Origin: Paecilomyces variotii
Lineage: Eukaryota
Direction: 5' to 3' (one strand)
Assembly: GCA_004022145.1 (NCBI GenBank)
Contig: RCNU01000002.1
Length of the DNA: 64,000 nucleotides
Shown here one piece after another: positions 2,710 through 37,250 of the stretch (position 1 is its first letter; each line of letters begins with the position of its first letter). Below the pieces are notes generated by a model. It did not search any database. It saw only the letters and a program-made list of their open reading frames with translations, and was not told the origin of the DNA. The position numbers and the translations under genes were made by a program.

Positions 2710-5700
2710 ATGACTTTCTTCAGCCCGACGACGCTGGTGGTCGGCTTCCTGCTCCTTTACCTAGCCTCCTTCATACTATTGGCCATTATACGCATCGGGA
2801 CTGGCATTTCGATTCAGAGAGTTGGCTATTTCTCCCTCCGACGCATCGCATACGCCCCGAGGGAGGGGATACAGCTGGAAATCCGCGGGCTCGGGTTGTC
2901 ACTCCACCGTCCCTCCTTTGCTAAGCCGACATGGGTCAGCCTCCGGATAACGGACTTGAAGGTAACTTGTGACACGAAGGCGCTGGAAAGGAGTAAACAT
3001 GCAGCGCATCAGCGAGACGGATCGATATCCTCGGATCACTCGTCGGACGAGACAGATGTCAAGGACACGGGATCCGGCCGCAGTTCGCCTTCAAGGTCGC
3101 GGAGTAAGACGTGGAAGACATTGACCAAGGTGAAGGAGCGGATCAAACGGGTCCACAGACAGATACATTGGTTGAAGATGGTCGATGTCGTGGCAGCGAA
3201 CACCACGATCCACTTTACGGAGGCCGGTTATATTCAGGTTGGCTATCTCACGATGGCTGTGGATACCAGGCGCAAGATGGTGGATAGAGGGAAACTCTTT
3301 CGACACAAGAAGGATCCATCTGGGGAGCAGAGCCCTGCGGAATGGATGCTGAATGTGCGGAATATCCTGCTGGCCGTCGACGGCCACGATCCGATGGAAT
3401 TGGTGGATAATATAGGGATCAACATACACGGACTTCTCTACAAGGATCTCGAGGGTCTGAGGGACACATCGGTTGCAATCAAAATTGGAAGATTGCACGT
3501 TCCTTATGACGACCTCATGACATTGTCGAAAAAGGTGAAGCAGTCCAATTCCAACGTATCGAAGGGCGACTCCCCCGAATTGGACGGTAAAATATCTTTC
3601 GCCGATTTTGTCGAAGAGTTGGACAGGCCAGGAACTCAGGAGGATGCTATTGTCCAGACGGTAGCCGACTGCAAGGAATTCGCCAGCTCTCTGTTACGTG
3701 GTATACAAGAGTTCCAGATAGCACTGAGCTTTTTCAGGGCGTCGAGACGAATCCAGCCTGCCGTGGAGGATCAAAAGTCCATGTACCTCAATGTTGTTAC
3801 GCACGAGATTGGTGTGGACCTGCACCGAATGGATCCGGAGACCCCAGCACATCGGATGTACTTCCAACGGAATGATGTTGCTCACCAAGCCCTGCTAGCC
3901 GCGATCTCCCTGTCTGTCAGTCTGGATGACAGCTCTGGCGAAACGGATAAGATCTTGTATGTTCCAATGGCTACCACGACAATCAAAACTACACTACCTT
4001 CCAAGACCGTGAGTTTGGCCAATGAGAGTGATCCGGAGGAACGCAATACCAATGTTCTTTTCGCCAACCTTGTGGTGACATCGCCCTCTGTCGATTTGGA
4101 GCCGCAACATTGTTCTCGATTACTCGATCTAGCGCAGACACGGGCATCGTCTCGAAGGAAAAGGAATAATAATAATAATAATAACCATCGACTGATTTCG
4201 CGCCTGCTACCTAAACTGAGCATCAAGTTGTCGATCCATGAACCCGTTCTTCGATTCGTCCTACCCATCACAGAAACTGCAGGATCCGCACCCTGTGACT
4301 ACAACCTCCTCATATCTTCGATATCTTCAATGTCTATGGATATCGAGTCGTCTCACTCGACAGAGGGCGGACTCCATTATTCCTTGTCATCCATATACAG
4401 AATCACCTCCCATCAGTTCTATTACCAGACCCCCGCCGGAGTGAAGCATAACATCTTGACTACGGAGAACATGGAAATCAAAGTCCTGCTCAATGCCTCT
4501 CCCGAAGTTTGCGTTATCGCTTCAGGAAACATGAACTGCTTCTCGGTTCATATGGTTAATGATGAAGTTAATCGTGGGATTCGCCAGGTCATCGAACAAT
4601 TCCAGACCCATGTGCAGCCGAAGAAGACGATGCCCGGTGATGAAAATAAACCAAGTGTGTTAAGGAGGATACCACCGTGGCTTTTGAGATTCCAATTTGA
4701 GGCTACCGGATCGAGCTTTGAGGTCGCCGGCTTTGACTCCAGTGTCTCTGAGATAAATCGTGGCATCGCACTGCAGCTGCAGTCCTGGACTGCGGATTAT
4801 AGAGCTCAGAAACTTGAGCCGAATAGGACGCTCCCCAGACGAAGGACGTCTACTCACTCTACTGTTGGGGACGAGGCGTCTTTCCTCTTCCCTCCCACAT
4901 CACCGCCTAGAAGTTCCCGTCAGGGACAAGCTGACGGCAGACGGTTGGCATTCCATGTGCGAGGCCTCGAAGGGTTTGCGATAGAATCGGAGGACTATAT
5001 AGAACCGGATCCATTCTTTTCAATGCCTCGATTTGAAGTCGCTCTCAGCACTCACAGCGACCCTCATGGTCCTATATCGCACATCAATTCCGTGATCAAA
5101 GGGGTCTATCTTGAGTACTCGCTCTACCGATATTATTGCCTCGGGGTTGCAGGATACGTGCTACGGGACACTTTCATGCGTCCTGCGCAACAGGGTGCAG
5201 CACCTACAGGCGATTATCGGCTTCATGATTATACTCCGAAGAGTTCGGCCCAAATCCCGCTGTCGCCTTCAGCCAAAAGAGAGCTCGTCACTGTTGATGT
5301 CAGAGCGACTCTCATACAAGTTAAGGCTTCATTGCCTTCTGATCCTCCCATGATGGTGCAGATATACGGCTTCACAGCTGGTCGTCACCGCTGGACGGCT
5401 CCCTTCACAAGATGTCAACTGATTCGCCTTCATGCGGAAGCTCCTAAACTGAAAGGAGTTTGGGCGAGAATTGTCAGTATGAACAATGTGAGGCTCGATC
5501 TACGTGAGATCCGCCGAAAGCAGGGCGATATTATGCGTGAAGAACGCTCCATCGACCTGTATACGGATTTCATTCGGATAGGTGTCCCTCATCACATGAT
5601 TATGCACCGCATCTTCGACAATTGCGTCAACGCCATGAAAGCAATGAAACAGCTGAACCATCGCTTTAAAACTGGTTCGACCGAATACGTTCTGGGAAAG

Positions 5701-18684: not shown

Positions 18685-19693
18685 TCAATCTAGCGTTTTC
18701 CCTTGAATCAAATTCACGTTGACTTGCCGACCACCGTAGGATAGAGAAACATTCTCATCTGTCGGACAATTCATATCGATACGACGTAGATCCAGTCCAG
18801 CTCGAGAAAACCCCAAAAGAAAATTACATCGATCCAAGCGCAAGTTCTCAATACGGTCCAGTAACTCTCTCAATGTCTCCAAAAAAGGACCGGGATATTG
18901 TTCTTCTTTCCGTCCGTCGTGATATGGCAGCTGCAATTGCGATAAGCAGACTGTGCGTAGAGGGACACCGCTCCCATTAGCGATCCAGACAGCCTTCGAT
19001 ACGACATTGAGGTGATGTTCGTAACTCTTTTCTCCCAGTGTCATGTCCAAATCCAGATACGACTGTAGCCAATCTCCCTTTTCCACGGGCCGACAGAAGT
19101 CCACTCTCAGTTCTGCTAGTTTCGGAAGCTTCTGTAAAGCAGAGGATAAGACGGCTAGGTCTGTATCGGTGTTGATGATCCCGCGTTGCTCTTCACAGAT
19201 CTTCTGTAGACGGTCATATATGACCATATAAGAAGGACATTCGCCATCATGATATTTCAAATCATACAATTCTTTCGCCTCTTCGACATATCGATGAGTT
19301 TGAAACGTGAATAGATTCGACGAATAACATTCGAAATCCAAGATTTCTTAAATCAAAAAAAATTCGTTCGTTCTAATAAGGTTTTCAACGTAGGCGATGA
19401 TATCTGGAATAAGAAAAGGCCTTACCCGGTCTTAACAATTGCGGAGCCACATAGATGAAGGAGACGGTATAGTGACGAACTTCGGACTCGATGAAGCTGC
19501 GGAGTTCATCGAATCCAGGTTTTGAGAATCGAAATTCAACCTCGTGGAAGAGAAGAGGTAGGCATATTTGTCTGAGCTTTTTACTGACGCATGAGAGTTG
19601 TTTGAGATCTGGGATTTGGAGCAGGTCGCGGATATCGTACAGGATTTCGGTTGGGAGAAGTTCGAGGAAAGTGTTATGGTCTGTTGAGCTCAT
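18685..19693 (-). CDS. F-box domain protein, probably lineage-specific (2 exons)
   Basis: N-terminal F-box signature LLPTEILYDIRDLLQIPDLKQLSCVSKKLRQIC. Intron 19425-19347 (GTAAGG..AAG) joins in frame to EILDFECY.... TATA-like TTTATATAAA lies ~45 nt upstream. Confidence 0.7.
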
Positions 19694-21066
19694 GGCGTGT
19701 GGGATCGTGAGTGCTAATCGTCTGCTTTGCTGGGTTTATATAAATAAGTGAATATCAATTTTTGAGGTCGCTCAGGTACTAAAAAATATAAAAATATAAA
19801 ATAAAAAATGGTGAAATAGATAGAAAACCGAAGAGATGATAAGATAAAGAAAAGGAAGATAACCACCCTTGGAATTGGACGTGTCTTGATATTGAATTAT
19901 TGTTGATGCTCACGAAGGTGGCCTATTGATTTAGGCCGTCAGCGATAGTATTTATTTATATAGCACGTACAGTTCGCAGCACGTTTGCCACTAGATAGAC
20001 AATAGAACGAGAAACTTCATCATACCACGACTAAAAGGGCAATTCAAACCGGGGTCTCCCAGTTCCTATGAGATAATCAGTTTTTTCACATGTTCTGAAG
20101 GAGTAGTAACGCTTTGGATTTAACCACCGTGAACTAGCGAAAAACCATTGGTGACTCAACGCTATCTGATCGGACGCGACTACTGCTCCTAATTTTCCCG
20201 TTGTAATGTTGTAGCGGTTTGGTTCCGGGAGTTCTCGCAATAACATGATGGAACTGTTTTGCTGATGGCATGACTGAGTTGTTTTAGTTTCGCTCGGGAG
20301 ACGCAATGTCATATGTTTCGTCCCGATGTAGATGGGCTTTCTGACCAATCTTATTAGCGAACCAGAGAAGAAAAGGGTTGATCCCGGTCAAGTGCCTGTT
20401 CGTATGGCCTCGGTTACGAATGATCGAGAGTAAGGTTAATGTCTATTGATCTTATCGAAAGTCTTCTTGGAAGGATCCAAACAACACAGGTAAGAAGCAT
20501 CAAAGAGAATGTGATAGCACGAGACGTAGGTGTAAATAGTATTCAAAAATAGATCCGGAAGGCTTTCGTTGCGTGTGGGTGAGCTCTCTTAAAGTTTGCA
20601 ACCAATGTTTCCTCGCGTCGTTATATTTCTTCAATGGAACTAGCGATTCTGTAAAGGAATAGCCAACTCTTCCAAGAAGCCTCTCATCCAAACGCATCCT
20701 GTGTTTTCGTAGAGAAACTGGGTGCCGCCACACTAGACGAGACAATTCCGGAACCTAACCAATTATCCTACCACAAGTTTTCAAAGTTGATACTATTCAT
20801 GCTTCCCGATTGATGGAATACTAGTCATATGAGATTGCAGAACTTTGGACCGCAAGGGGAAGTTGTAGATATCTTGAAGTTATAAGCTACCTTAGCGATA
20901 ACAACGAGCAATCATTTCTAAGAATATCTTTTCACCTCATGATGCTAGCAAGCACAGACGCCGTACGAAGAGAGGAGGAAACTGGAGAAAACCGCCCCAA
21001 AGAAAGGCCAAAAGAGGATATCGTAGACAGAAGAGGGTATTAAGCTATTTATACACAACTGGAAAC

Positions 21067-22040
21067 TCAGACCTTTCGTCCATGTCGCGAATAGAAATCG
21101 CACTGCTTGATGTGCTTTGCTTTTCCGGTTTTCTCGTCAAATAGGCTGAATCCATAAGTCGCGGCATTGGGTGGGGTATAGACTAGAATAAGATTAGCAT
21201 CACGATACAAGGTTAGAAGGTTAGCTATATCTCAACATACGGTGTAGCGAAATGGCGAAGTTGCTGGGGTCGGGGTTCGAGATTTTATGGAGACCCAGCT
21301 TCATAGATGGTTAGTACACATACTTTGACCAAGAATCATCCCGAGAGAAAGAAAAAGGTAAGATGGCGATAGATGATCACAAACCTTATCAGACATGTAA
21401 GTCACCTGGTTCTCGCCATATTTGGTCTGCTTTGTGATGTGGAGAGGTGACGATTGTCCTTCCTTGACCTTGTCCTCTTCTGGCCACGCATAGAGCGTTT
21501 CCTGCAAGGTGCCTTTTAGGACCTGATTTTGCAAAGGCAAAGGTTAGTTAATTACATCATTCCAGAGTCTCACAATGATGAATGGGCAAATACCTTCATG
21601 ACACAATGTGCGTTAGCATGGTCGTGGATTGCACTCCCTTTACCCGGACTCCAGACAAGAATAAGCTAGATTTCCCAAGTGGGCGCAGTTAGCACACCGT
21701 CTGAGTATCTAATGGCGTCCACTAGCCACGGAGCGTATACGGATTCCACTCTATATTCAATTCATACCAGGTTGCTCTTTCCGTTACCCTCGTCCACCAG
21801 GTTTCTTGTATACGTCCTACTGGCGTCTCCCATCGCGTACATCGTCCACTCTTGCTCATTGGAGACATACTTCTCCATCAGCCGTTGGATGTCTACCGGG
21901 TCGACATCGTCGGAATCAAGACCTGAGCTGGGACCCAAGACAGCGCTCAGATCTGCAACGAGCTTTTGGAAGGCGTCCTGTGCCGTACCATCGGCTTCGG
22001 ACAGAGAAGACGACTCCGAACCGTTTTCGAGGAATGGCAT
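21067..22040 (-). CDS. CDO1: Cysteine dioxygenase (5 exons)
   Basis: [15 protein letters not shown] / [24 protein letters not shown] / VLKGTLQET / LGLHKISNP...AISLH / LYTPP: the cupin 3-His ligands and the SLHLY motif. Confidence 0.95.
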
Positions 22041-22779
22041 CCTTACGGGTTTGCAGTACAGCTTGTCTTGAACTCAGATAACTCTGTAAACCCGCCTATT
22101 CAATGGCAGCGGATCTTCCAGTAAAGTTTCCCGCCTGACTAGATATAAGATGCGTGCAAGCTTCAGAGAAAGCTTTCGGTCTTGGCCGGAAGTTGAAAGA
22201 GAGTTTGAGGATGGAAACGGTCCGAGAAAAAAATAAATTGAAGTACGTAGCTGCCTATAGGTATTACTAACGGCGATTCGGATATCATATCAAGGGAAGC
22301 ACAAGCGTGGTATGCGTATCCTCTTGAGGACGGCGGAGTGGTGAGTATATCTGATATTATACGGAAGGTCCAATGGAGAGCGCCGTGAGGCAATCTCTCT
22401 TGTCTGAGCCGCCGCTTGCCACAAACATGGTCGAAGTTGAGCACGCAACGCAGCACAGGAGAAGACGCGATCAACTCCGATCTGGCTCCGATCTGACTTT
22501 TGGGTGCCTTGTGGGTGCCTTGTTAGTGCCTCAGGTCAACGCCCCGCGGCGATAACTGGGGCTACACTCACCGCCTTTGGCAGAATCCCGCGAAAGCCAT
22601 CGAATAGTGGCGGCGACCACAAATCTATCTCAAAGATTCTTCCCCGCAAGAAACTCTTGCGACATCCTCTGCACACTGCGCCACCGCTATACGCCTGTGT
22701 GTGCTGCATTTTTTTTTTACCAAATACTGCACCTTTTCAATCATTCTAAGCGTGCCTCAGCGCGTGCGATTCCGCAAAA

Positions 22780-24363
22780 ATGGCGACGACAGTGGACAAG
22801 GTTCGCTCTGCCTCCGTTCTTACCAAATCTATGAAGAATGACACTGACACATGATCTCGTACTGCAGATCAAGGAGATTGAGGCCGAGGTTAGTCAACGG
22901 ATTTTCCGTCCGAGATGCTCGAAGAAGTGGGATACTGACACTCCCGCAGATGGCCAAGACTCAGAAGAACAAGGCGACATCATATCACTTGGGACAGTTG
23001 AAGGCTAAGCTTGCGAAGCTAAAAAGAGAGCTCCTCACTCCTTCTGGTGGTGGAGGTGGTGGAGGTGGTGAGTATATGTTCAAATAGTGTGATATTATCA
23101 GCTCTGTCGAGCCTCCGCTGACATGCATATCTCGTAGTCGGTTTCGACGTTGCCCGTACTGGTGTCGCGAGTGTGTAAGTACCTCTCATTTGTACACAGT
23201 TGCGTATCTGACACTGACACCAAATGCTAGGGGATTCATTGGCTTCCCGTCCGTGGGGAAGAGTACGTTGATGAGTAGATTGACTGGCCAGCATTCCGAA
23301 GGTTCGTGACGATCCTCTTGTCTTTGTGCAAGGGAGGAAAAAATACTGATAGTCATGGGTAGCTGCCGCATACGAGTTCACAACCTTGACGACTGTCCCT
23401 GGACAGGTCATATATAACGGTGCGAAGATCCAGATCCTGGACTTGCCCGGTATCATTCAAGGAGCCAAGGACGGCAAGGGTCGTGGTCGGCAGGTTATCG
23501 CTGTCGCAAAGACCTGTCACCTCATCTTCATTGTTCTCGATGTCAATAAGCCTCTAACGGACAAGAAGATCATCGAGAACGAGTTGGAGGGATTCGGAAT
23601 CAGGATCAACAAGCAACCTCCCAACATCGTCTTCAAGAAGAAGGACAAGGGCGGCATTTCCATCTCCGCTACGGTCCCATTGACTCACATCACCCATGAC
23701 GTATGTTCTACAGCTGTAAGACTTTGGGATTATCCGCTGACATTTTCCAGGAAATCAAAGCCGTGATGAGCGAGTATAGGATCTCCTCTGCTGATATTGC
23801 TATTCGGTGCGACGCGACTATCGACGACCTGATCGACGTTCTGGAGGCCAAGAGTCGAAGCTACATCCCCGTCATCTATGCTCTGAACAAGATCGACTCG
23901 ATTTCAATTGAGGAGCTGGACCTTCTGTACCGGATTCCTAACGCGTGCCCCATCAGTTCGGAACATGGCTGGAACGTTGACGAGCTTCTGGAGCAAATGT
24001 GGGAGAAGCTCAACCTCCGAAGAATTTATACCAAACCCAAGGGCAAGCAGCCCGATTATACGGCTCCAGTTGTTCTGCGGTCCACCGCGTGTACTGTCGA
24101 AGACTTTGTATGACGCCTCTCCTACTTCTTTCTCTCTAATCCAGGGACTAACTGTACCATCAGTGCAACGCAATCCACAAGTCGATCGTGGAGCAGTTCA
24201 AGCATGCTATCGTCTATGGTCGTTCCGTGAAGCATCAGCCACAGAGAGTCGGTCTTGCTCACGAACTTGCAGATGAGGATATCAGTCAGTGACCCCGTCC
24301 CTGTTGCGCTCAGCAAAGCTTCCATACTAACTTTCCTTCACAGTTACAATTGTTAAGCGATAA
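22780..24363 (+). CDS. RBG1: Developmentally regulated GTP-binding protein DRG1/Rbg1 (9 exons)
   Basis: [39 protein letters not shown]1 [22 protein letters not shown], and a TGS domain ending DIITIVKR*. Confidence 0.95.
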
Positions 24364-25526
24364 ACGGCCACTCCCAATGCTGAACACTTCCCCTGTCCGC
24401 ATGAAGAGCTGGAGAGCCGATCATGAGGACCTGGCCTATAGCTGACTTGCGCCTGGCACGGACCTTGGGCCACTTGACAGTTGCTTGGAAGGGGATTTGG
24501 ATTCGAAAGTGGTCCACGGGATCTCATCTGAGACACCACGCAGAACTTGATGAGAGCGGGGAGTATGGAAACAATGCTACCAACTGCAGCTGTGGTTTGG
24601 ATAGCGTCCAAGTATCCTGGAAGGGATTGGATTGGGTCTTGTCAATGCATTCATAATGCAGGGTTGTTTTCCGGATCTGGCCATTACCACCAGGTATTAC
24701 GTGTCATAACTTACCAGGGCTCGACAGGGTTGAAATGAGGTGGAGGAAGATGACCGGGGAAGACTGAAGGGAACATGGATTAATCAGCGCACAGGGGAAC
24801 ATCGCAGGCTTCCTCTGGGCTGGATGAGTGTTCATGTCAGGGAATGATTTGTTCTGATCAGACAAGCATAGCGAGTTCCGCTTTCCTTGTGCGAAGACGT
24901 GTCTCAATGCGCATGTTGATAAGACTGTTCCGATACTGATATTTGGAAATGTGATGACCAAATCCGGACTGGCGTCCGGGAGCAAAGATGGATTAACGAA
25001 CTTATCTGCGCGGTTGTGTCAAGAATTCAGGAGGTTCCTTTATAAGAAACGGGGACAGCGCCCATGGCTGTGACATCCTTTCTTGTTCGTGTCAGATAGC
25101 CACCGCATGGCCGGCCTATCGACGGGGATCATGGGCCTTACGATTCCTGCTAGTAGAGAGCCCTGGTGGGAAGCAGAAAGGGCTGAGCCTTCGCATGGCG
25201 AGCAGTGCCGAGTTCCATAGTTCCATCCGCACTTGGGGTCTGGATCGCTCGTTGAGTTCGGATCCGATAAAGAAACTTGTAGATTGTAATAATAGCGGCC
25301 CGTGCAAACCATCCTAGTGCCATGCCGTCTGTAGTTACCTAGACAAGGTACTCTGTCATTGATCGCTGTCGCCCAGATGACAATCCGGTTAGCGGATGAA
25401 GCGGTGCCTGCGCCAGGCGACCAAAACGAGCAGTTACCCTGCTTCTTTCGTCATTCGGGAGATCTCTGTCGAGCCGGGGATCGCTGAAGTATCTTATCCT
25501 TGGCCAATTTGTTAGTTATTTTCTTT

Positions 25527-25528
<2 letters not shown>

Positions 25529-25570
<42 letters not shown>
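25529..25570 (+). repeat. Poly(dT) tract, ~42 nt
   Basis: Uninterrupted T run in an intergenic region. Confidence 0.95.
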
Positions 25571-25573
<3 letters not shown>

Positions 25574-28500
25574 TTTCCACGAGATGCGTGCCGGATGGTC
25601 CATCTTAGGCCCCTGAACGCCTATGGTATTTCTCCCCACACACCACCGGATCCTTCAGCCAAGAGGCTGTTGGAGAAGCAAAGCTTCGAACGTAGATCCC
25701 GGCGCTTAGAGTAGATTGCTGCAGTGAGACATTGGACGAGACTGGGCTGTCTGGAATTACATTGGGCGACCAGAGCCCCGTTCGCAGTGCGGATTGGGGC
25801 CGGTTTGTAATACTTGTAGTGAGTAACTGATAGTACCACTTTCATAATCTGTCGTCAGTATTGGCCGCAGCGCTATCTGCGGAGTGGCAGTATTTAATTA
25901 ATTAATTGGGCGAGAGAAAAAGAAAAGAAGAAGAATGGACCAGGACGGTTGAGAAGAGAGAGAGAGAGAAAGAGAGAAGAAGGAAAGACATTGTTTGATT
26001 GTTTGTCTCGGAGCACGTAACTTAACTAACCTCCTCCGCCTCGCACGTCCGTCGACTCGACCCCAACAGCGTCGTCTTTTCTTTGACGGTTTGACCAGGA
26101 GCTATGGCCTTGTGTTTGAGAGCGCCGGGAGGAGGTTGGCAAGGTCACTAACTGGAGCGTGCTCTACGTTTGATCTTATCCCCCCTCATCCCCCTCCTTC
26201 ATTGTTATTGATTGAATCTACCCGCTGGCGCCCTGTCACACGTTTTAGTTGCCGCCGGGGCTTGTCACCGTCGATATTATTGACTTGATAGCGTCTCTAA
26301 TGGGGTCTTCAAGCCCATAGGTTGATTGTCAGCACTGTGTGTGCCTGTAATTCTTCGATGTCGCACGATGCTGGGCGTCCGCCTCATTCCGTCTGGTCCT
26401 TCAACCATCCAGCTGATGACGATGGCAGCTTCCCCTTCGCAGTTCCACGCGACGATGAATTAGCCTTGATGACCGTCGGACAAGTGTGAATATTACATAG
26501 GCTGGCACCACGTTTCGGCTGCCCACGCTCATGTCCAGTTGAATTTGGTCCCTGACCGTCTGGCCAGACTATGGGCTGTACCAGATTACTCCATACAAGC
26601 GAGCAGGCTTTTTCCTTTCATTATTTGCGTGGCTGACGATAAATGCGCAGCGCCCCAGCGCATGCTCCACGTGAAGGGACAGCCAGAGCTTTTCAGGGCC
26701 AATATCACGACAATACTTCGTCCGCGCAACTCGAGTGGAGCGGAAACTGAAATATCAATATCCGTCCTCGTGGCCCTCCGGCAGGGGAGCAGCGTGTATG
26801 GCTTGAGACTCTTAGACTATGGCTGAAGAAACCGTTCAAATCTGAAAGAGGACGAATCAGTCATTCCTCCGTATGACGGCGGAGACCGTTCGCAAATCGT
26901 GCACCTGCAAGGCTATGTCGATTTTCGAACCACTTTTCGGGCCGTCTCGACAGCTCCATTTGCGGATCCTTTAGAGCGCCACGGCCGCCGGCGAACTAAC
27001 CATACAACGACCAGAGCGAGATCCCTCCGATCGTCCTAACGACGGAGTCTCCTTTCCAGGATGACCAAGGACTGCCCATAGTGGATCGCGGTGGGCCTGG
27101 GGACTGGCCCGGGCATGCTTCAATTCTTAGAGCCGTCGTGCTGAGAACTTAACCTTCTCGATGCAGAAACTATGATAGGACTCTGCTCGACGGTCCTGTT
27201 CTGCCCATGTATGGGTACTTGTAACATATCCTCCACTTGCTGTGCTTTTTGGTCGCAAGTACCGAGTGCTCGACGGTACTAGGTACTTCTTCCGCCGCCG
27301 TTATTCTTACTTTTTATTTCGGCTTCGGATTTCGCCCAGGAAATGGATCATCCACGCTTATACGGCCGAGACCGTCGTGCACTAAATTCGCAAAACAAGA
27401 CCCTCTGTCGATCCTTCTTCGGGAGTGCACTGATGAGGCCATGATGCCCTGGACATTGTGGCTCACTGTTGGTCGCCATTATTGCTATTATTCGCCTCCC
27501 CTTGACAATTACCAATGGATGCCACTGCCCCCTGCAAATAGCACGATGATTATGATTGACTCTATCTAGGGCATCTCCGCTGTCCTCGTGCTTCCGTCTC
27601 CACGATCCACGTCCACTAATCTTCTATCGACCGATATTGTCACGATCTATGGATCGAGTCAGGGAACCCACTCACATCATCATAGCCTCTTGCCCCGATG
27701 CTGTACAGAGAGCGTCGAGCGGTGTTTTCCTTCCTTGGACATGACCATGCCGATGTGGTCCGGGTACCGTCGATTTTGCCCGGGACTAGAGTAGTTGTAC
27801 TGCTCGCAGGGTTCACCATGATCGGGGTAGCAAAGGTTGCTCATAATATTGGCCGCTATTATCTCCCCTTGGAAGATTCGAGCTTTGATATCTCATGTGA
27901 ACTGCCGTTTTATTGAGCCACTAAGCAGGAACTGCCGTTACGTTCCGTATGGTATCCCAATACTTCTGTGCTGTACGTCTTTTTACATCACGGTAATTTG
28001 GCTTTAAAATATCCCGGTCTAACGTCTCCTTCGACAGCCAACCATGTTAAATGGATGGCTTCGACCCCTCACCATTTTTTTGCATGTACCCAATAGTCTT
28101 GCGTCTTCCGGTCTTTTTCTCCTGCTGGCTGTCATTTCTCTCCTTTTTTGCCCTTCCTCCCGTCGCCGCTATCTTGCACGGGCTTTGTGTTTAAGTAGTT
28201 TCCTTTTCGGTTCATCGCCCATAGTTAAGCTGCACTTATCGATGCCCCCCTGGTGCCTTGTCCTGAATCCTTTTTACATGCCCTACCCGCTGCAGAGCAC
28301 CCACCATCCGCCCCTCACTACCTTTTCCCCATCCTGCATACTCCGAAGAGCGTCCCTCAAAAGTCAAGAATAGCTCCCCTGTACATGCTGCAAATACTTA
28401 TCATAGTACCTGCTTCATTCCGAATTCAACGACTCCGGGTGATCGGGATTTTCTTCTCTCCCGCGAAACTATCTACTGCTCTTTCATTCTTCCGTCCTAG

Positions 28501-28662
28501 ATCTATCATGTCTTCTTTCTCTTCAACTCGCATCTAGTCTTGGAGCTTCGCTACTATTAAGTTTGCAGTCGGCTTGGTCCGCGTTTCACTGACCTTGTGC
28601 GTCCGTGCTGCGCTGCAGACTGTCCTTCCCTCAACAGGAAGCAAACCAGCATATTCAGCTCT

Positions 28663-30407
28663 ATGGATGTATCTCCCGCCATGGATACAGAAGCTCATTC
28701 CGGACAGGAGAATGATTTTGGACATTCACAGTGGGTTGAGATGGGCGGCTATAACCCTTCCCAACAAACATCCCCGATACCGGATTTCCACGGGTTTGGT
28801 TATGGACCTGCACCTATAATGCCAATGGAGCCTTCCTATAGCATGTCGATACCGCCGTCGTATGCATCACTGCCTTTGGCTATGCCTTCTCATCCATGGC
28901 CGAGTATGTTGACGGCGCACTCAAGTTTCCATGAGGGGGGGTTGCCACCGGCGCCGGCGCCGGCGCCAATCTCCATATCACCTCCAGCACCCATTCATCC
29001 TATACGCACAACATCCACCGGATCTACCCCTAGGAGGACACTCACGGATGAAGATCGTCGACGGATGTGCCTCTATCATGAGGAGAACAAAAATGCTAAG
29101 CAGACAGACATCGGAGGTGAGCTTCTTCTGCACTTGTATATGATCGAAAACGCTAATTAAAGGGAATGTAGCCTTGTTTGGGGTTGAAAGAAGGTAACCA
29201 AAATTCACTTTCTTTTTGATTTACTATATGAGAATAAAATCTGACATTCTGAAGTACTGTCTCCAAAGTTCTACGTCAGAAAGAGAAGTATCTCAACCCT
29301 GATGATGGATCTCGCTCTCCTATCAAGAGGGCTAAGGGCCGGGTTCCTGATATTGAAAAGGCCTTATCCAATTGGGCAAGGAACTATCAACGTCAAGGCT
29401 ATCCTTTAACGGATGCCATGATCAGGGAGAAAGCGCATTTCTTCGCGACCACTTGTGGTAGTCCTGACGGCAAGGAGAAAGTGCTCACTACAGCATGGCT
29501 CGAGAAGTTCAAACAGAAGAACAATCTACTGGGAGCAAAGTCACGGAAAGGTTCGATCGATACGGCAAGCGACATTGGAAGTCCTTCGCAGTTGAATACG
29601 AACTCGAGTACTGCTTCGGCTTCGCAAACCCCAAGTGGAGTATCACCGATATCCCCCGGTGGATTGACAACGCCGTCTCCAGTGTCTCCTCCAGCAAATC
29701 AGGATAGCCTGCGGAAAGACTCACTTCAAGGTTTTGATTTTGGCAACGACTACCGGCCCACGCACGCTCAGAGTACAACTTCCCTTGACACGGCGCCTTC
29801 CCTCACGGCCAGTATGGCAAGTCCGACATCTCCCTTTGTGTCTGACAGTCCGTACACTCCTACGTTGCAGAATGGACTCCCCTCTATTGGCAGTAATTCA
29901 AGCAGGCCACGAAGCCAGACATTCCCGCTTGCTGCTGCTATCGAACCGGGACTGCTCTCTCCAAACGGTTCAGCTGATCAACTTACACCGAAGAATGTCC
30001 TGCAGGAATCAATGTCTACCTCCGTTCTGGACTCGCCCCTTGATGATTCAGCTCTCGACTCCGACGAGCCAACTACGATCAAAAGAAACCACAGCAGTCC
30101 CGAAATCAAGACTCAGTTGATGCAGCCGCCCCCATTGCCAAAATCAAACACTACTTCTCCAATTAGCGCACCTTCTTCTCCCACTCAAGATGAGGCACGT
30201 CGCGCCTTGGAGCTTGTTATGAACTACTTTCAGAATCAGCCTTCAGGTCTAGGTGCACATGACTTCATGACGATTGGAAAGCTCATGGAGAAGTTGGAGC
30301 TCGCCCAGAATCAAGCCTCTATACTTCCTGGGGGGCTGCACCGTATCGACGAGCGTGAAGATGGGCTTCGCGTCAGCAAGAAACGGAGTATACACTCTTT
30401 GACTTAA
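28663..30407 (+). CDS. CENP-B-type HTH DNA-binding protein without DDE domain (domesticated pogo/Tc5-like HTH) (3 coding exons)
   Basis: RRTLTDEDRRRMC...KQTDIG/ALFGVER/STVSKVLRQKEKYL (first HTH) and PDIEKALSNW...LTDAMIREKAHFFA...WLEKFKQKNNL (CENP-B HTH). Introns 29117-29171 and 29194-29254; Ser/Pro-rich tail. Confidence 0.85.
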
Positions 30408-31770: not shown

Positions 31771-34700
31771 CTACATGTGGTCTTCTTCATGGTTGGTGGA
31801 GAGAGTAACCCCTCTGTCTTCCATCAGCTCGGCGACATCGCGCTCCAGCAACTCAGGGAGGAGCTTAGCGAGTATTGCTTCGATTATTGAGAACATGAGA
31901 TGGCGATTGCAGTATGCGTTGGAAAAGGGATCTAAAATTTCGGTCTCGATGGCGGACAGGAGAAGGTCCTCTTCCACCTTGTCGATATTCTCAGCGGATA
32001 AGGGCAAGGCCCGTTCGGGGAAGGGATTTCCTCCCTCGGGTACCAGACCTTCATCCTGCTGTTTCTGAGGCTGCTCGACAACCGACGCACTGACTACATC
32101 ATCCCTGGATATGCAGAAGAACGCTCGAGCGACAGGCCGCGGGATCAGGGATAGGAGCCTCTCTGCACATTGCCGTTTGATGGCCGCAACTTCAGAGTCG
32201 GGACGCTGTCCTCGTTCCAATTGCGAGGGTGGTGTTGTAGTGAGCGTTGCGGCAGGGGCTTCTGCCTCGTTGTTCTCTACCACAATGGGTGGGATTTCAC
32301 TAATGTTCTGTGAAGTCGGAGTCGTGGACGGATTGACATTAGACGATGGAGTTGTGCGCGGACTCGTCGGGAACATAGCAGTCCGAATCGCAAGAACAAG
32401 GGTCGGCAGGAGGGAGGGCGTTAGCACATGCTCCCGGATTGTCTCGTGGAGGAATCTGCAAAAAGAAACAGTATCTGATCAGTCATAGGAGACGGCGGAG
32501 AAATTAAGACGAAAAGTGATATATCTCAGGGATAAACACGGTGCGCGTCAGTGACAAATAGTAGTGCAGTGGGCTTGTCTATATTTGGACACATTTCGAA
32601 GAAGTTGGAAGAAGCTGACGATAGGCGAGGCAAAGAAAAAAGAAGACGAAACAATCATGTCGAGTCTAAGGGACGCGGTCTCGAAGGCAAGGTTACATGG
32701 CCTTGGCTCATGGCTTGATAAGTCGTCCGGGTCCTGAAGATTCTTGTAGAATTCCTTCGGCCATAGACAGGGTACCGATTGAACACTGTAGAACACCGCA
32801 TCGCTCTAAAGGCGGTCGCGGGGGAGGCCGCAGCTTAGGCAGGATATCGAAAGAAAGACCACAGCGGTCGAGACGCAAATTTGAAATTTTGGCTGCAAGA
32901 AATTCCCTGATTGGCTCGAATAATAAGAGCCCATGGGGCACTATTGCTTGCATGTTCCAAAAGTAGCATGGGCGTCATGCGACCGGACCATGGGTGATCG
33001 CCCGTGCCGTGGCTGGCTTATGATCTAGGATCGGTGTTTGCGTCTCCCGCAAAAGATAGCAGGTACAGTGTTTGCGGGGTTCTGGCGAGGCATTCACCAA
33101 GATCATCCACCGTGGTGAAATGAGGTCGACTTTCGAGCAACGCGGGAGGGAAGGGCCGGTCCAGGATGCGTTTAACGGAAGATGCCTCACAGAGACGGTG
33201 CAAGCGAACCATAATCCGCGTGTTCAGGCCCTTTCAACGATATGGAAAGGCGCATGTCTTAGCTTTGGGTTTTGGCCTGGATCTCCTGCAGCCACTCTCG
33301 GGGGGAAGGACGGAAGCATCGAGGGGTCAAAGTCTAAGAAAGCCGAGAGGGAACGCCAAACCGGTGTTGCCCACGCTCCGAATGGCCCTAAATGGCCAGT
33401 CAAGGTAACGTATCGAGCGAGATGCCTAGGCAGCAGGGACGGGGCCGGATGAGCGACAGGGAAGACGGTCGGCGATCCGACAAGGGCCTTGTAACGCAGC
33501 GGTAATGAGACGATACAACCTGGTAACGACTTGTACGGACGAGGCGGCCGTTATCGACGGTGCAGATATCGAAGTCCCCGATATCGCGGAAAAAAGAGAA
33601 GCCTCAAGGTCCATCAGGGGCATAGACAAGCCACGGATACTCGTTATCCCAACCCGATATTGGCTGGGAGTCACCCACCATCAGATCAAGTGACCGCAGC
33701 ATCATGCGAGCAGACATGTCCGCGTCTTCTTGGCCTTCCAATGAGACATGCCAAACCCCTCAAGACAGCGGTCTGCGTAATGCCCCGGTGCGGATCATGG
33801 ATCGAAGATCGCTATCCCATGCACTCGATCACGTACATTTTCCTTAGATGGAGTGCCCCAGACCGTGACAGATGGTGGTGGATCATCCGGGTGATCGCAG
33901 CGGGCCGCGCCAACACGAGGAAAAGGGGGCCAGTGAAGAGCATTAAGTATAAAAGGAAATATTGAGCTTACCTATCAAGAACACCATCCGTATCCCCCAC
34001 TCGACCTGGGCCAGCCAGAATCCAGTGTTGAGCAAGTGCTAATGTTCCCGCGAGCCATGGCATGCGTCGGGGAATATCCAGCAATTGCGATAACATCCCG
34101 TAGAGCCGATAGTCGAGTACGGGACGCTTCGTGACGATTTTGGCCGGCAAGGGCGCTATTCTCGAATGGGTCGTCAGACTGGCAGGATGTGCCGGGGATG
34201 GAGGGCCCCGAACGGGCATCGTAGGCTGCGTGGATGCGACGCGGAAAAGTCCTGTAACCACGAATCGAAGGACGAGATATCCCAGATAGGCATATTGCAG
34301 GATCTGCCATAGCCAGATTGAGAATTGCGATTGGTTCGTCCTTGACGAATGATCGTCGTCGGATTCATCCGCGGTGGACAAAAGCCCAAACTTCTCCAGT
34401 CGGCTCTTCTCGACTCCTTCCGCGTCCTCACTATCTGCTTTGCCCACGCTTCGTTGTGTCGCTAGATCAAGGAGTTTGATTATCGTCTCCCAGACGAACC
34501 ACCCTTCACAAGCCCTCCCGCTGACTTCATTCCCAAGGACCAGATCGGCAAGGATATCACCGACCAATGTCCGTAAACAGACATTCTCCAGATCCTCTGT
34601 TGGAAGAAGGACCGCCAATGCACCCTGCACCAGCAGTTGCCGATATGCCGTCTCATTCTCAAGCTGCATCGTCCGTGCCTGTGGGTCCGAAGGGTCTGGA

Positions 34701-35392
34701 ACAGGAGAAAGCGCTGGATGTGGATTCATGGCATGATAGATGACGTGCAGAGACGAACGGGGCGCAGCCAGATCAGACTGATGCTTGGCTGTTCGGTACG
34801 CTGCACAGGAAAGGAGGCGTCAATACTTGAAACTTCGACGGGACATAAGTGAAAGGGAAGAGTCAGCCTCACAGACTATATGAGCCTCGACCAGACCAGG
34901 AATTTCATCCAACAGTAGTTCAGCAATGTCCACGCGTCGTAACCTCTGTTCCAGAGCACGAGTGCAATGAGCAATCAGCTGTAGGATTTCGTCGACAAAA
35001 GCACGGTCCGGCGTGATCTTGGCGTACCAGGAGTACACAAACTCCCTGATAATGATCGCTATGAGCGCGTATAACTGATGGTCGACATCATTGGAGCTGG
35101 TAAGTGGTGGGAGCAGCTCGTCGAGCGGTCGAGGAGTTGTAGCACCATAGCTGTTGGCTTGCGGACAAAGAATGCGCCGTATCAGGGCAACAGTAGCTCT
35201 ATCATCGGCCGGATCTGGCTGTTCAGAACAGGTCGGGGGTCTGCGCAGCCGGGCTCCTGATGATGGTCGTAGTAGCGGCTCAGTCTGAGCCCTTGAAGGT
35301 GCTGAGAGATTGGAGGCCTTGGAGGTTGACGTCGTTGGTCGGGCCTTGGGGTTCGACAGAGGGGGTAAGCTCGGGGTAGGATGACTGCTCAT
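31771..35392 (-). CDS. PXA + PXC(Nexin_C)-domain protein lacking PX/RGS, Nvj3/SNX-RGS-like (3 exons, with a 1516-nt intron 2)
   Basis: Exon 1 35392-34873 (IIREFVYSWYAKITPD, a PXA signature); exon 2 34800-33972 (YRQLLVQGALAVLLPTEDL); intron 33971-32456; exon 3 32455-31771 in frame (DR|FLHETIREHVLTP...FSNAYCNRHLMFSIIEAILAKLLPEL, PXC-like end). Confidence 0.85.
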
Positions 35393-35788: not shown

Positions 35789-37250
35789 ATGTCTTCACTC
35801 ACAAACGAGGCTCCCATCCCTCTGTGGTTGGACTGTGATCCTGGTGAGCATAATCCCCTGACCGCGCACTGGTTGTTTAGGTAAATACTGATTTCCACTT
35901 CTCAGGACACGATGTGAGCCTTGCTATTTGATATAATACTTCACAATCAATGCAAAGCTGACAATATTTTTTCGATCCGAATTAGGATGCCTTTGCCATC
36001 CTCCTGGCCATCCATCACCCATCTCTGAAGCTTCTCGGAATCAGCACCGTTCACGGTAATGCATCGCTCCAGAACACGACCGCCAACGCAGGCAGCGTGC
36101 TCGAAGCCCTCGGAAGGCCAGATATTCCCATCTATCCAGGATCGAAGAAGCCCTATTCGAGACCCGCTGTTTATGCTCCCGATATTCACGGTAAGGCAAT
36201 CTTCCACATATCAATTATTGGCGAGTGATCCTGGTATAAATATTGAACACATTAACTCTCTAGGAAACACCGGTCTCGACGGCACCGACCTGCTGCCAAA
36301 AGCAACCGTGCCCCCAGTAACAGACAAGAATGCCATCCTGGCTATCCGTGATGCTATCCTAGCGGAGCCAAAGGGAACTCCATGGCTCGTTGCAACTGGA
36401 ACCTTGACGAACATCGGTTTATTGTTTGCAACCTTTCCAGAAGTCGCGGAGCATATTCAAGGTCTGAGTATCATGGGTGGAGCAGTTGGAAATGGATTCA
36501 CTGATGCTCCTATGAGTCGATTGCCTGGTGAAGAGGCACGCATTGGAAATACCACGCCATGGGCGGAGTTCAACACTTATGTGCGATTTCCTAATTTCCT
36601 TTTATCCAATCCTACCTTTCTAGAATACGTCGAAATTATATAGTATCCCCTCTGTTTAAAGCATCATATATTCGGCCTTCTAACATGCAAGTTTATAGTG
36701 TGACCCGGAATCCTCGCAATCGATCTTCTCCAACCCCATCCTCGCACCAAAGACAACTCTCATCGCCCTCGACTTAACTCACCAAGTCCTCGCCTCGCCC
36801 ACCGTCCAGTCCCGCATCCTGACCGGCACAGACGATCTCTCATCCGAACCGACCGTCCTCCGCCGCATCCTCCACGCCCTAGTTACCTTCTTTGCATCAA
36901 CCTACGAAACCGTCTTTGGTCTGGACGTCGGCCCACCGCTGCACGACCCCCTCGCCGTCGCAGTGATCCTTTCGAATCTGAACCCATCGTTCGCCAAAGC
37001 CCATCCAGACAAAGCGCTCAAGTTCAACGACAAGGGAGGAGAACGCTTCATCGTCAACGTCGTTACGGACGGCAAGCATGGGACAGACGTCTCGGTGACA
37101 GGACAGTTGGGGCGGACGGTCGTTGAGCCAGCTACGGGTGGTGGTGGAGTGGCTATCCCGCGCGGTGTTGATCTCGATGCATTCTGGAGCATGATCACTG
37201 ATTGTATCCAGCGCGCGGATGAGTGGAATGCTGCTCGTGGTAGGAAGTGA
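35789..37250 (+). CDS. URH1: Uridine nucleosidase / inosine-uridine preferring nucleoside hydrolase (5 exons)
   Basis: WLDCDPG/HD/DAFAI (the DxDxxxDD motif, split by an 8-nt exon), STVHGN, IHG, ATGTLTN, MGG, AEFN/CDPE and PPLHDPLAV. Confidence 0.93.

Follow-up and report, generated by a model that had tools for sequence, protein, structure and literature searches.

A long, conserved intron in a fungal PXA-domain gene as the probable host of a cis-regulatory DNA module

The PXA-domain gene and its long intron

The window analysed here is a 64,000-nt stretch of the Paecilomyces variotii contig RCNU01000002.1 (GenBank assembly GCA_004022145.1). Its minus strand carries a PXA-domain gene whose three exons join into a 677-aa open frame, and whose second intron is 1516 nt long (Table 1). 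To our knowledge, fungal introns are short, and fungal noncoding DNA usually cannot be aligned beyond the genus or family. Our comparative analyses revealed that this intron is long at the same codon in a wide range of fungi and that it contains a short bipartite motif with invariant spacing. The most probable reason for its length is a conserved cis-regulatory DNA module that acts as a promoter or enhancer from within the gene, and not a folded RNA.

The Pfam PXA domain falls across exons 1 and 2, which are separated by a first intron of 72 nt. The closest database relative of the encoded protein is from Paecilomyces lecythidis (91%). Among 120 longer relatives, the D-R junction at which the long intron is inserted is uninterrupted in 109, carries an insertion in five, coincides with a protein end in two and differs in another way in four. 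Nexin_C, the Pfam family of the PXC domain, has no match in exon 3 or in two full-length orthologues, in both of which PXA is the sole Pfam domain; its share in one related protein cluster is 16%. The AlphaFold model of one orthologue (pLDDT 65.5) predicts confident helices in the C-terminal half, and a structure search of this model against the PDB gave no match. Yeast Nvj3 comprises PXA and PXC (PMC13345203). The host gene resembles Nvj3 and the SNX-RGS proteins in joining PXA to a conserved helical C-terminal half; it differs in that PXC is without a Pfam match, and the likeness to Nvj3 is one of domain content.

A first-pass annotation, made from the sequence alone, had proposed a 1516-nt intron with the donor AG/GTAAGC, a GACTGAT branch site and a pyrimidine-CAG acceptor. 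This description was borne out, as the splice joint 32455/33972 occurs in RNA contigs and restores the 677-aa frame. The RNA evidence consists of unstranded contigs from four of the 24 listed runs (X1, X2, X7 and X10), which give neither strand nor level, and the joint is present in X2 and X10. In a spot check of the contigs, the remaining single-intron joints between 28.5 and 37.5 kb skip 55–118 nt, and one two-intron joint skips 141 nt. The annotation had also singled out an in-frame stop built into the donor. The stop is indeed there, but it is no special design: it arises because a phase-2 intron begins GTRAG or GTAG, and 38 of 40 donors give the same stop. Locus L033 lacks the stop and still has a long intron with the motif.

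RNA from within the intron is also represented. One X1 contig, spliced at intron 1, extends into the long intron without splicing, and the joints listed for this run do not include the spliced one. In X2, an intron contig of depth 150 (305 and 593 for the flanking multi-gene contigs) connects to exon 3 and ends at 33916, 55 nt before the donor. The X10 cover is confined to the 3' part of the intron and ends at 33145, beside the CCTCCCGC block, with foreign letters at its end, while X7 leaves intron 1 unspliced and resembles DNA. We considered the ends at 33916 and 33145 as transcription starts and dropped them, because a start cannot be read from a contig and because of the foreign letters at the X10 end. 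The intron cover is compatible with retention, internal initiation or antisense read-through from the neighbouring gene, which contigs cannot separate. The proposed switch by splicing or intronic polyadenylation receives weak support from the X1 retention contig, whereas X2 and X10 contain the spliced joint and none of the contigs has an intronic poly(A) end.

Conservation of the intron across fungi

Orthologues were collected in one metagenome scan (80 loci), from which near-duplicates and loci with no recognisable donor were dropped. Forty introns were used for the motif count and 28 complete introns, the window included, for lengths; L049, with an intron of about 530 nt, an uncertain acceptor and no motif, was kept out of the length count. 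At the same codon, 27 of the 28 complete non-redundant copies measure 772–2222 nt, the lone short copy being the 49-nt intron of L036. Intron 1 of the same gene, by comparison, spans 48–165 nt in 40 of 41 loci and is absent in L036. A protein tree joins these loci to named proteins of Eurotiales, Helotiales, Pleosporales and Stereocaulon (support 0.97–1.0), with several clades left without a name. The intron is therefore ancient, being long in at least four fungal classes. L008 is a spliced transcript of the L015 gene, which indicates that the long intron is spliced in Pleosporales too.

The bulk of the intron cannot be aligned between classes. Within Helotiales and within Pleosporales, clade alignments reveal further conserved blocks of 20–40 nt, and the window shares several blocks with other Eurotiales (Table 1). 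The intron is single-copy in its genome, and the possibility that it is a recent transposon remnant, raised in the first-pass annotation, was thereby set aside. The view that the intron is unusual and functional holds: in at least four classes it is long at this codon and contains conserved sequence.

RNA structure in the intron

The first-pass annotation had favoured a structured noncoding RNA as the reason for the intron and listed six inverted repeats. All six are perfect at the coordinates given, but the number of such repeats in the intron is not beyond chance. Perfect inverted repeats of at least 7, 8, 9, 10 and 11 bp number 58, 12, 5, 2 and 1, against shuffle means of 49.6, 12.2, 3.1, 0.8 and 0.2, and at every length from 7 to 11 bp the counts are matched or exceeded by 15–60% of 200 dinucleotide shuffles. 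The folding energy is also at the level of dinucleotide shuffles, with z-scores of +1.67 and −0.65 for the two halves of the intron and mean z-scores of +0.13 (sense) and −0.14 (antisense) over 50 windows of 120 nt. A comparison with Rfam gave no match at threshold, either in the window or in 10 orthologous loci, and covariation in the aligned orthologous introns is not beyond shuffles. As RNA, the motif region described below yields a consensus stem of 3 bp (−0.54 kcal/mol, 35 sequences), and the covariation observed around it is reached by 211 of 500 shuffles. The consensus structure of the Helotiales introns has an unfavourable covariation term (+2.73), with a double change in just 5 of 45 pairs. 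With folding, repeats, covariation and Rfam all null, a structured RNA is not supported. The feature that the annotation picked out is real and unusual, but the reason given for it was wrong; the conserved part resembles DNA binding sites, which were not considered there.

A GCAT/E-box motif with fixed spacing and nearby CCAAT boxes

The conserved sequence that extends across classes is CGCAT-N9-RTCANNTGAY, a GCAT half followed by a non-canonical E-box palindrome. It is present in 37 of the 40 non-redundant introns, with no insertion or deletion between the halves despite a variable spacer sequence, and always lies 81–279 nt from the donor. The GCAT half varies as (C/T)GCA(T/G). Within the palindrome, TCA and TGA never vary. 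The outer positions R and Y change independently of each other (A combined with C in 7 of 37), and six forms occur at the centre, none of them CG. The motif is absent in L046, L049 and L036, and L075 is too short to contain it. The copy in the window is the single profile match of at least 11 bits in 64 kb.

No conserved reading frame runs through the motif. A hidden peptide or exon, for which an 'MxxxSLD' frame at the motif was considered, was ruled out by stops and by ATG to ATA or ATT changes in orthologues. Judged by back-translation, mis-annotated Aspergillus and Thermoascus proteins that read into the intron appear to hold peptides matching the motif.

A CSAAT sequence, the site at which CBC, the CCAAT-binding complex, binds (consensus CCAATVR, PMC7144946), follows the palindrome within 70 nt in 22 of the 37 motif-bearing introns. 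It lies at +19/20 in 13 of them and at +29/30 in six, positions about one helical turn apart, and is off phase in three. A purine occupies position −1 in 18 of the 19 in-phase sites, compared with 54 of 100 for all intronic CSAAT. A motif-like copy also exists outside the intron: in six of eight Pleosporales loci, GCAT-N11-CANNTGA stands beside a conserved CCAAT and AGGGG, 370–570 nt beyond the end of the PXA coding match and between the 3' ends of the convergent genes. This promoter-like block of AGGGG, CCAAT and GCAT-N11-CACCTGA is found at L019:9178, L060:4959, L062:9108 and L067:9213, and also in L061 and L071. Short factor-type motifs with constrained spacing, as expected of a promoter or enhancer, are thus found in the intron.

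Table 1. Features of the PXA locus in the window
Feature	Position	Strand	Remarks
PXA gene, exon 1	34873..35392	−	Nvj3-like; A. fumigatus orthologue AFUA_1G05540
PXA gene, exon 2	33972..34800	−	remainder of PXA domain; closes D-R, phase 2
PXA gene, exon 3	31771..32455	−	conserved helical C-terminal half
Long intron	32456..33971 (1516 nt)	−	same codon, long across Pezizomycotina
Branch-site candidate GACTGAT	32478..32484	−	from sequence
Core motif CGCAT-N9-RTCANNTGAY	33685..33708	−	37/40 introns
CCAAT box	33659..33663	−	+30 from palindrome TCA
Block common to Thermoascus-like locus L043	33296..33350	−	80% over 55 nt
Pyrimidine-rich CCTCCCGC block	33135..33165	−	common to L043; also in Helotiales
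Second Eurotiales block, AGCCAATCAGGGAATT at end	32901..32986	−	CCAAT box 32914-32910, aligned in 4/5 Eurotiales introns
Convergent CENP-B-like gene, HTH_Tnp_Tc5 domain	28561..30407 (start approximate)	+	Pfam E 1.5e-16; candidate module target

Factor occupancy in Aspergillus fumigatus

Published chromatin immunoprecipitation sequencing (ChIP-seq) data for HapC-GFP in A. fumigatus place peaks at +1833 (3.8-fold) and +1911 (8.2-fold) from the start of AFUB_005880, the PXA orthologue, with weaker peaks at +2534 and +2786 (PMC7144946 Table S3); in strain A1163 the two main summits correspond to DS499594:1,658,075-1,658,153. The promoter of the gene itself reaches 2.3- and 2.7-fold, below these two peaks. 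Input DNA has peaks both there and at the promoter, and none of the 19 rows for the locus among the matches listed belongs to the NLS-Venus control sheets (same table). From the 444-aa model and a 57-nt first intron, and assuming that the listed start is the ATG of the model, the donor of the A. fumigatus intron was estimated at +1388. The main HapC peak would then lie about 445–525 nt into the intron; this placement is an estimate and does not extend to an overlap with the motif. For the palindrome, ATCANNTGA has been reported to be bound by fungal basic helix-loop-helix (bHLH) proteins of the SREBP family (PMC6329520).

The convergent CENP-B-like gene and synteny

Twenty loci extend for 5 kb or more beyond the donor. 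In 17 of them a convergent CENP-B-like gene lies downstream of the PXA gene; the upstream neighbour URH1 is kept in five of the 20. The linkage between the PXA gene and the CENP-B-like regulator gene is therefore deeply conserved, as in a regulatory block. At L036, which has the 49-nt intron and no motif, the neighbour at L036:8755-9690 (−) retains a 19-aa similarity trace and has no HTH_Tnp_Tc5 match, in this single case.

The A. fumigatus convergent neighbour is most likely AFUB_005890, on the opposite strand and about 6 kb away. In pooled samples, its transcript level after 120 min of hypoxia is about 4-fold lower than after 30 min; at 120 min an srbA deletion has 12-fold more of it, while PXA changes 2.2-fold in the same data (PMC4223079 Table S4). 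The neighbour is strongly regulated; a link to the intron is not part of these data. AFUB_005890 had first been taken as exon 3, which suggested a hypoxia switch between the two gene halves; its position on the opposite strand about 6 kb off led us to discard the ratio. Identity of the neighbour with N. crassa CBF-1 was dropped as well, since the CBF-1 paper describes a bHLH-zipper protein.

A model for the intron

Based on the motif layout, a dimeric bHLH factor that tolerates a non-CG centre, of the SREBP/Tye7 type, may bind RTCANNTGAY, while a partner protein would bind GCAT one helical turn upstream of the palindrome. The CBC would bind one or two turns further on and open the chromatin. 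If the intron houses such a module, its most likely target, at about an even chance, is the convergent CENP-B-like regulator gene 2–6 kb away, on which it could act as a 3' enhancer or through an antisense RNA begun in the intron. Control of the neighbour would explain the lasting linkage of the two genes. Otherwise, the module would act on PXA itself, by internal initiation or by interference that alters the amount of full-length mRNA, or its target may be a noncoding RNA. The exon 3 consensus of the relatives has no conserved in-frame Met close to the exon start; an internal sense transcript would therefore probably be noncoding and aimed at the 3' end of the neighbour.

A bolder version of the model is a miniature genomic regulatory block, in which an ancient enhancer or antisense promoter, placed in the intron of a lipid-contact-site gene and read by the CBC and the GCAT/E-box factor pair, governs the adjacent CENP-B-like gene; such control would be what has held the two genes together in at least four classes. 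We put this forward tentatively and consider it rather doubtful as a whole. The activity of the module may also set the amount of full-length PXA mRNA.

Several observations weigh against a cis-regulatory module. Genome-wide, the motif shows no enrichment (4 matches versus 1 for a control) and so is no regulon motif; a genome-wide regulon was rejected. CSAAT is lacking within 70 nt in 15 of the 37 introns. CCAGT without the purine flank occupies +19/20 in eight Helotiales introns, of which seven belong to these 15. Moreover, 10 of the 13 CSAAT sites at +19/20 come from Pleosporales kin, so that the phasing represents few independent events and the counts are inflated. CBC peaks number 4112–5302 per condition, and the HapX peaks at the locus (1.6- and 2.8-fold) lie near input peaks (1.7- and 2.2-fold) and under the 3-fold cut-off of the paper (PMC7144946). 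The location of the main HapC peak within the A. fumigatus intron, as noted above, is itself estimated. SrbA favours non-palindromic sites (PMC6329520), and the hypoxia ChIP table for SrbA has no peak between 1,474,012 and 1,760,264 on DS499594 (PMC4223079 Table S2); the factor at the E-box is therefore only a candidate bHLH protein. Finally, the synteny could reflect overlapping 3' ends of the two genes.

Alternative explanations

The most serious rival is that the motif works at the RNA level as a splicing element. TGAY would then serve as a branch site, alternative or decoy, while retention or the use of a nearby 3' splice site would be steered by a bound protein, with a switch between the full-length mRNA and a PXA-only or decayed form. 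Some weight attaches to this explanation, as TGAY looks like the core of a branch site and 25 of 36 introns have a YAG within the next 25 nt, a pattern that also tells against a DNA site. The confinement of the motif to 81–279 nt from the donor fits it, as do an ACTTG able to pair with the donor in three clade alignments, the X1 contig that retains the long intron with intron 1 spliced, and the depth of the X2 intron contig. Furthermore, 28 of 32 inspected Helotiales and Pleosporales database proteins stop at the long-intron junction, in a search that was confined to short proteins and is biased accordingly. However, the four RNA runs contain no alternative-acceptor joint, YAG is absent within 60 nt in seven of 36 introns, and ACTT is gone in 10 of 37 while the palindrome persists. 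The invariant left TCA and GCAT would be left unexplained, the second copy of the motif lies outside the intron, and the intron cover in X2 and X10, connected to exon 3 alone, may derive from antisense transcription that reads through from the neighbour. We consider a splicing element unlikely, albeit worth keeping in mind.

The remaining explanations fare worse. A structured noncoding RNA could draw on the 20–40-nt blocks within Helotiales and Pleosporales, on the RNA contigs over the intron and on a slight excess of conserved sense helices in one 13-sequence, mainly Pleosporales alignment (9 versus 2.8 ± 1.4 after column shuffling), which also counts against a purely DNA-level function. Set against these are the folding and inverted-repeat statistics, the missing Rfam match, the 3-bp consensus stem and the covariation results, by which this idea is largely refuted and appears improbable. 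A neutral long intron, a transposon relic or a hidden nested coding exon would agree with the unalignable bulk of the intron and with the loss of the motif in two lineages (L036 and L046/L049). Nevertheless, the single copy, the length in 27 of 28 introns beside a first intron that stays short in nearly all loci, and the invariant motif without a conserved frame through it refute these possibilities by conservation, and we give them very little credence.

Relation to known systems and significance

The proposed module most resembles a cyp51A-type bHLH and CCAAT enhancer set in an intron, and its pattern of linkage is that of an animal regulatory block. Enhancers that combine SREBP with the CCAAT complex, such as the 34-mer of A. 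fumigatus cyp51A and mammalian SREBP/NF-Y promoters, likewise have a bHLH-type site beside a CCAAT or CGAAT box bound by the CBC (PMC4954732). The present element differs by its location in an intron, its extra fixed GCAT half, a palindrome in place of a sterol regulatory element and the lack of an SrbA peak. The bipartite CBC:HapX site CSAAT-N12-RWT is comparable in CBC occupancy, which is placed by estimate here, and in its fixed-spacing layout (PMC7144946), whereas here the partner motif is an E-box upstream of CSAAT, and HapX is below 3-fold and near input.

In animal genomic regulatory blocks, enhancers reside in the introns of bystander genes beside developmental regulators, as for Shh. 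Like them, the PXA locus combines noncoding DNA conserved within an intron of an unrelated gene with lasting linkage to a gene for a DNA-binding regulator. Unlike those blocks, it is fungal, of kilobase scale and made of a convergent pair, and control of the neighbour is only a candidate. Conserved RNA structures in fungal introns (Li and Breaker 2017, PMC5640933; Gao et al. 2021, PMC8216456) are similar in being conserved elements of Pezizomycotina introns; they differ in that no covariation is seen here, and 'PXA' occurs in neither main text. The intron does not belong to these structured-RNA sets as given in the main texts. We found no paper that names the locus or describes such an element, in a search that left out most subscription papers.

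If the model is correct, a kilobase intron with a 24-nt motif shared by four classes, bound by the CBC and tied to a neighbouring regulator, would represent compact, deletable intragenic long-range regulation in fungi. The motif would serve as a defined probe toward its DNA-binding partner. The long intron also accounts for a common annotation error, in that many databases list a PXA protein cut at the intron. Proteins P0003 and P0134, for example, stop at the D-R/K codon ahead of it, and databases often give the C-terminal exon as a gene of its own.

Other observations

The next-best genomic match to the motif, at G000:C23:1035174-1035197 (L088; 26.4 bits), lies near an ankyrin-like frame. 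A TATAAAAG box at 33949-33956 (+), just inside the 5' end of the intron, is not evident by eye in orthologous intron starts. A template-like repeat at about 33385-33400 raised the possibility of a telomerase RNA. A search of the genome for the predicted telomere unit gave no match, the telomerase RNA family RF02462 matches elsewhere (contig C67), and the telomerase RNA of Aspergillus oryzae is located between other genes (PMC3603654). Compared with PMC3603654 and PMC4299874, the intron is not a telomerase RNA. The likely telomerase RNA locus is G000:C67:1234689-1234772 (−) (L002; RF02462, 47.5 bits, above the cut-off).

A stretch of about 9 kb (19348-28560) that lies upstream of the CENP-B-like gene has no open reading frame of at least 170 aa. 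The matching A. fumigatus region has several HapC peaks 1.9–4.7 kb upstream, which suggests a large regulatory region. The CENP-B-like gene also contains, at 29114-29251 (+), a microexon of roughly 20 nt flanked by introns of 55 and 61 nt. A second microexon, of 8 nt, is located between two short introns of the URH1 nucleosidase gene (35906-35913, +), and shows up as extra letters at the joint in three of the four RNA runs.

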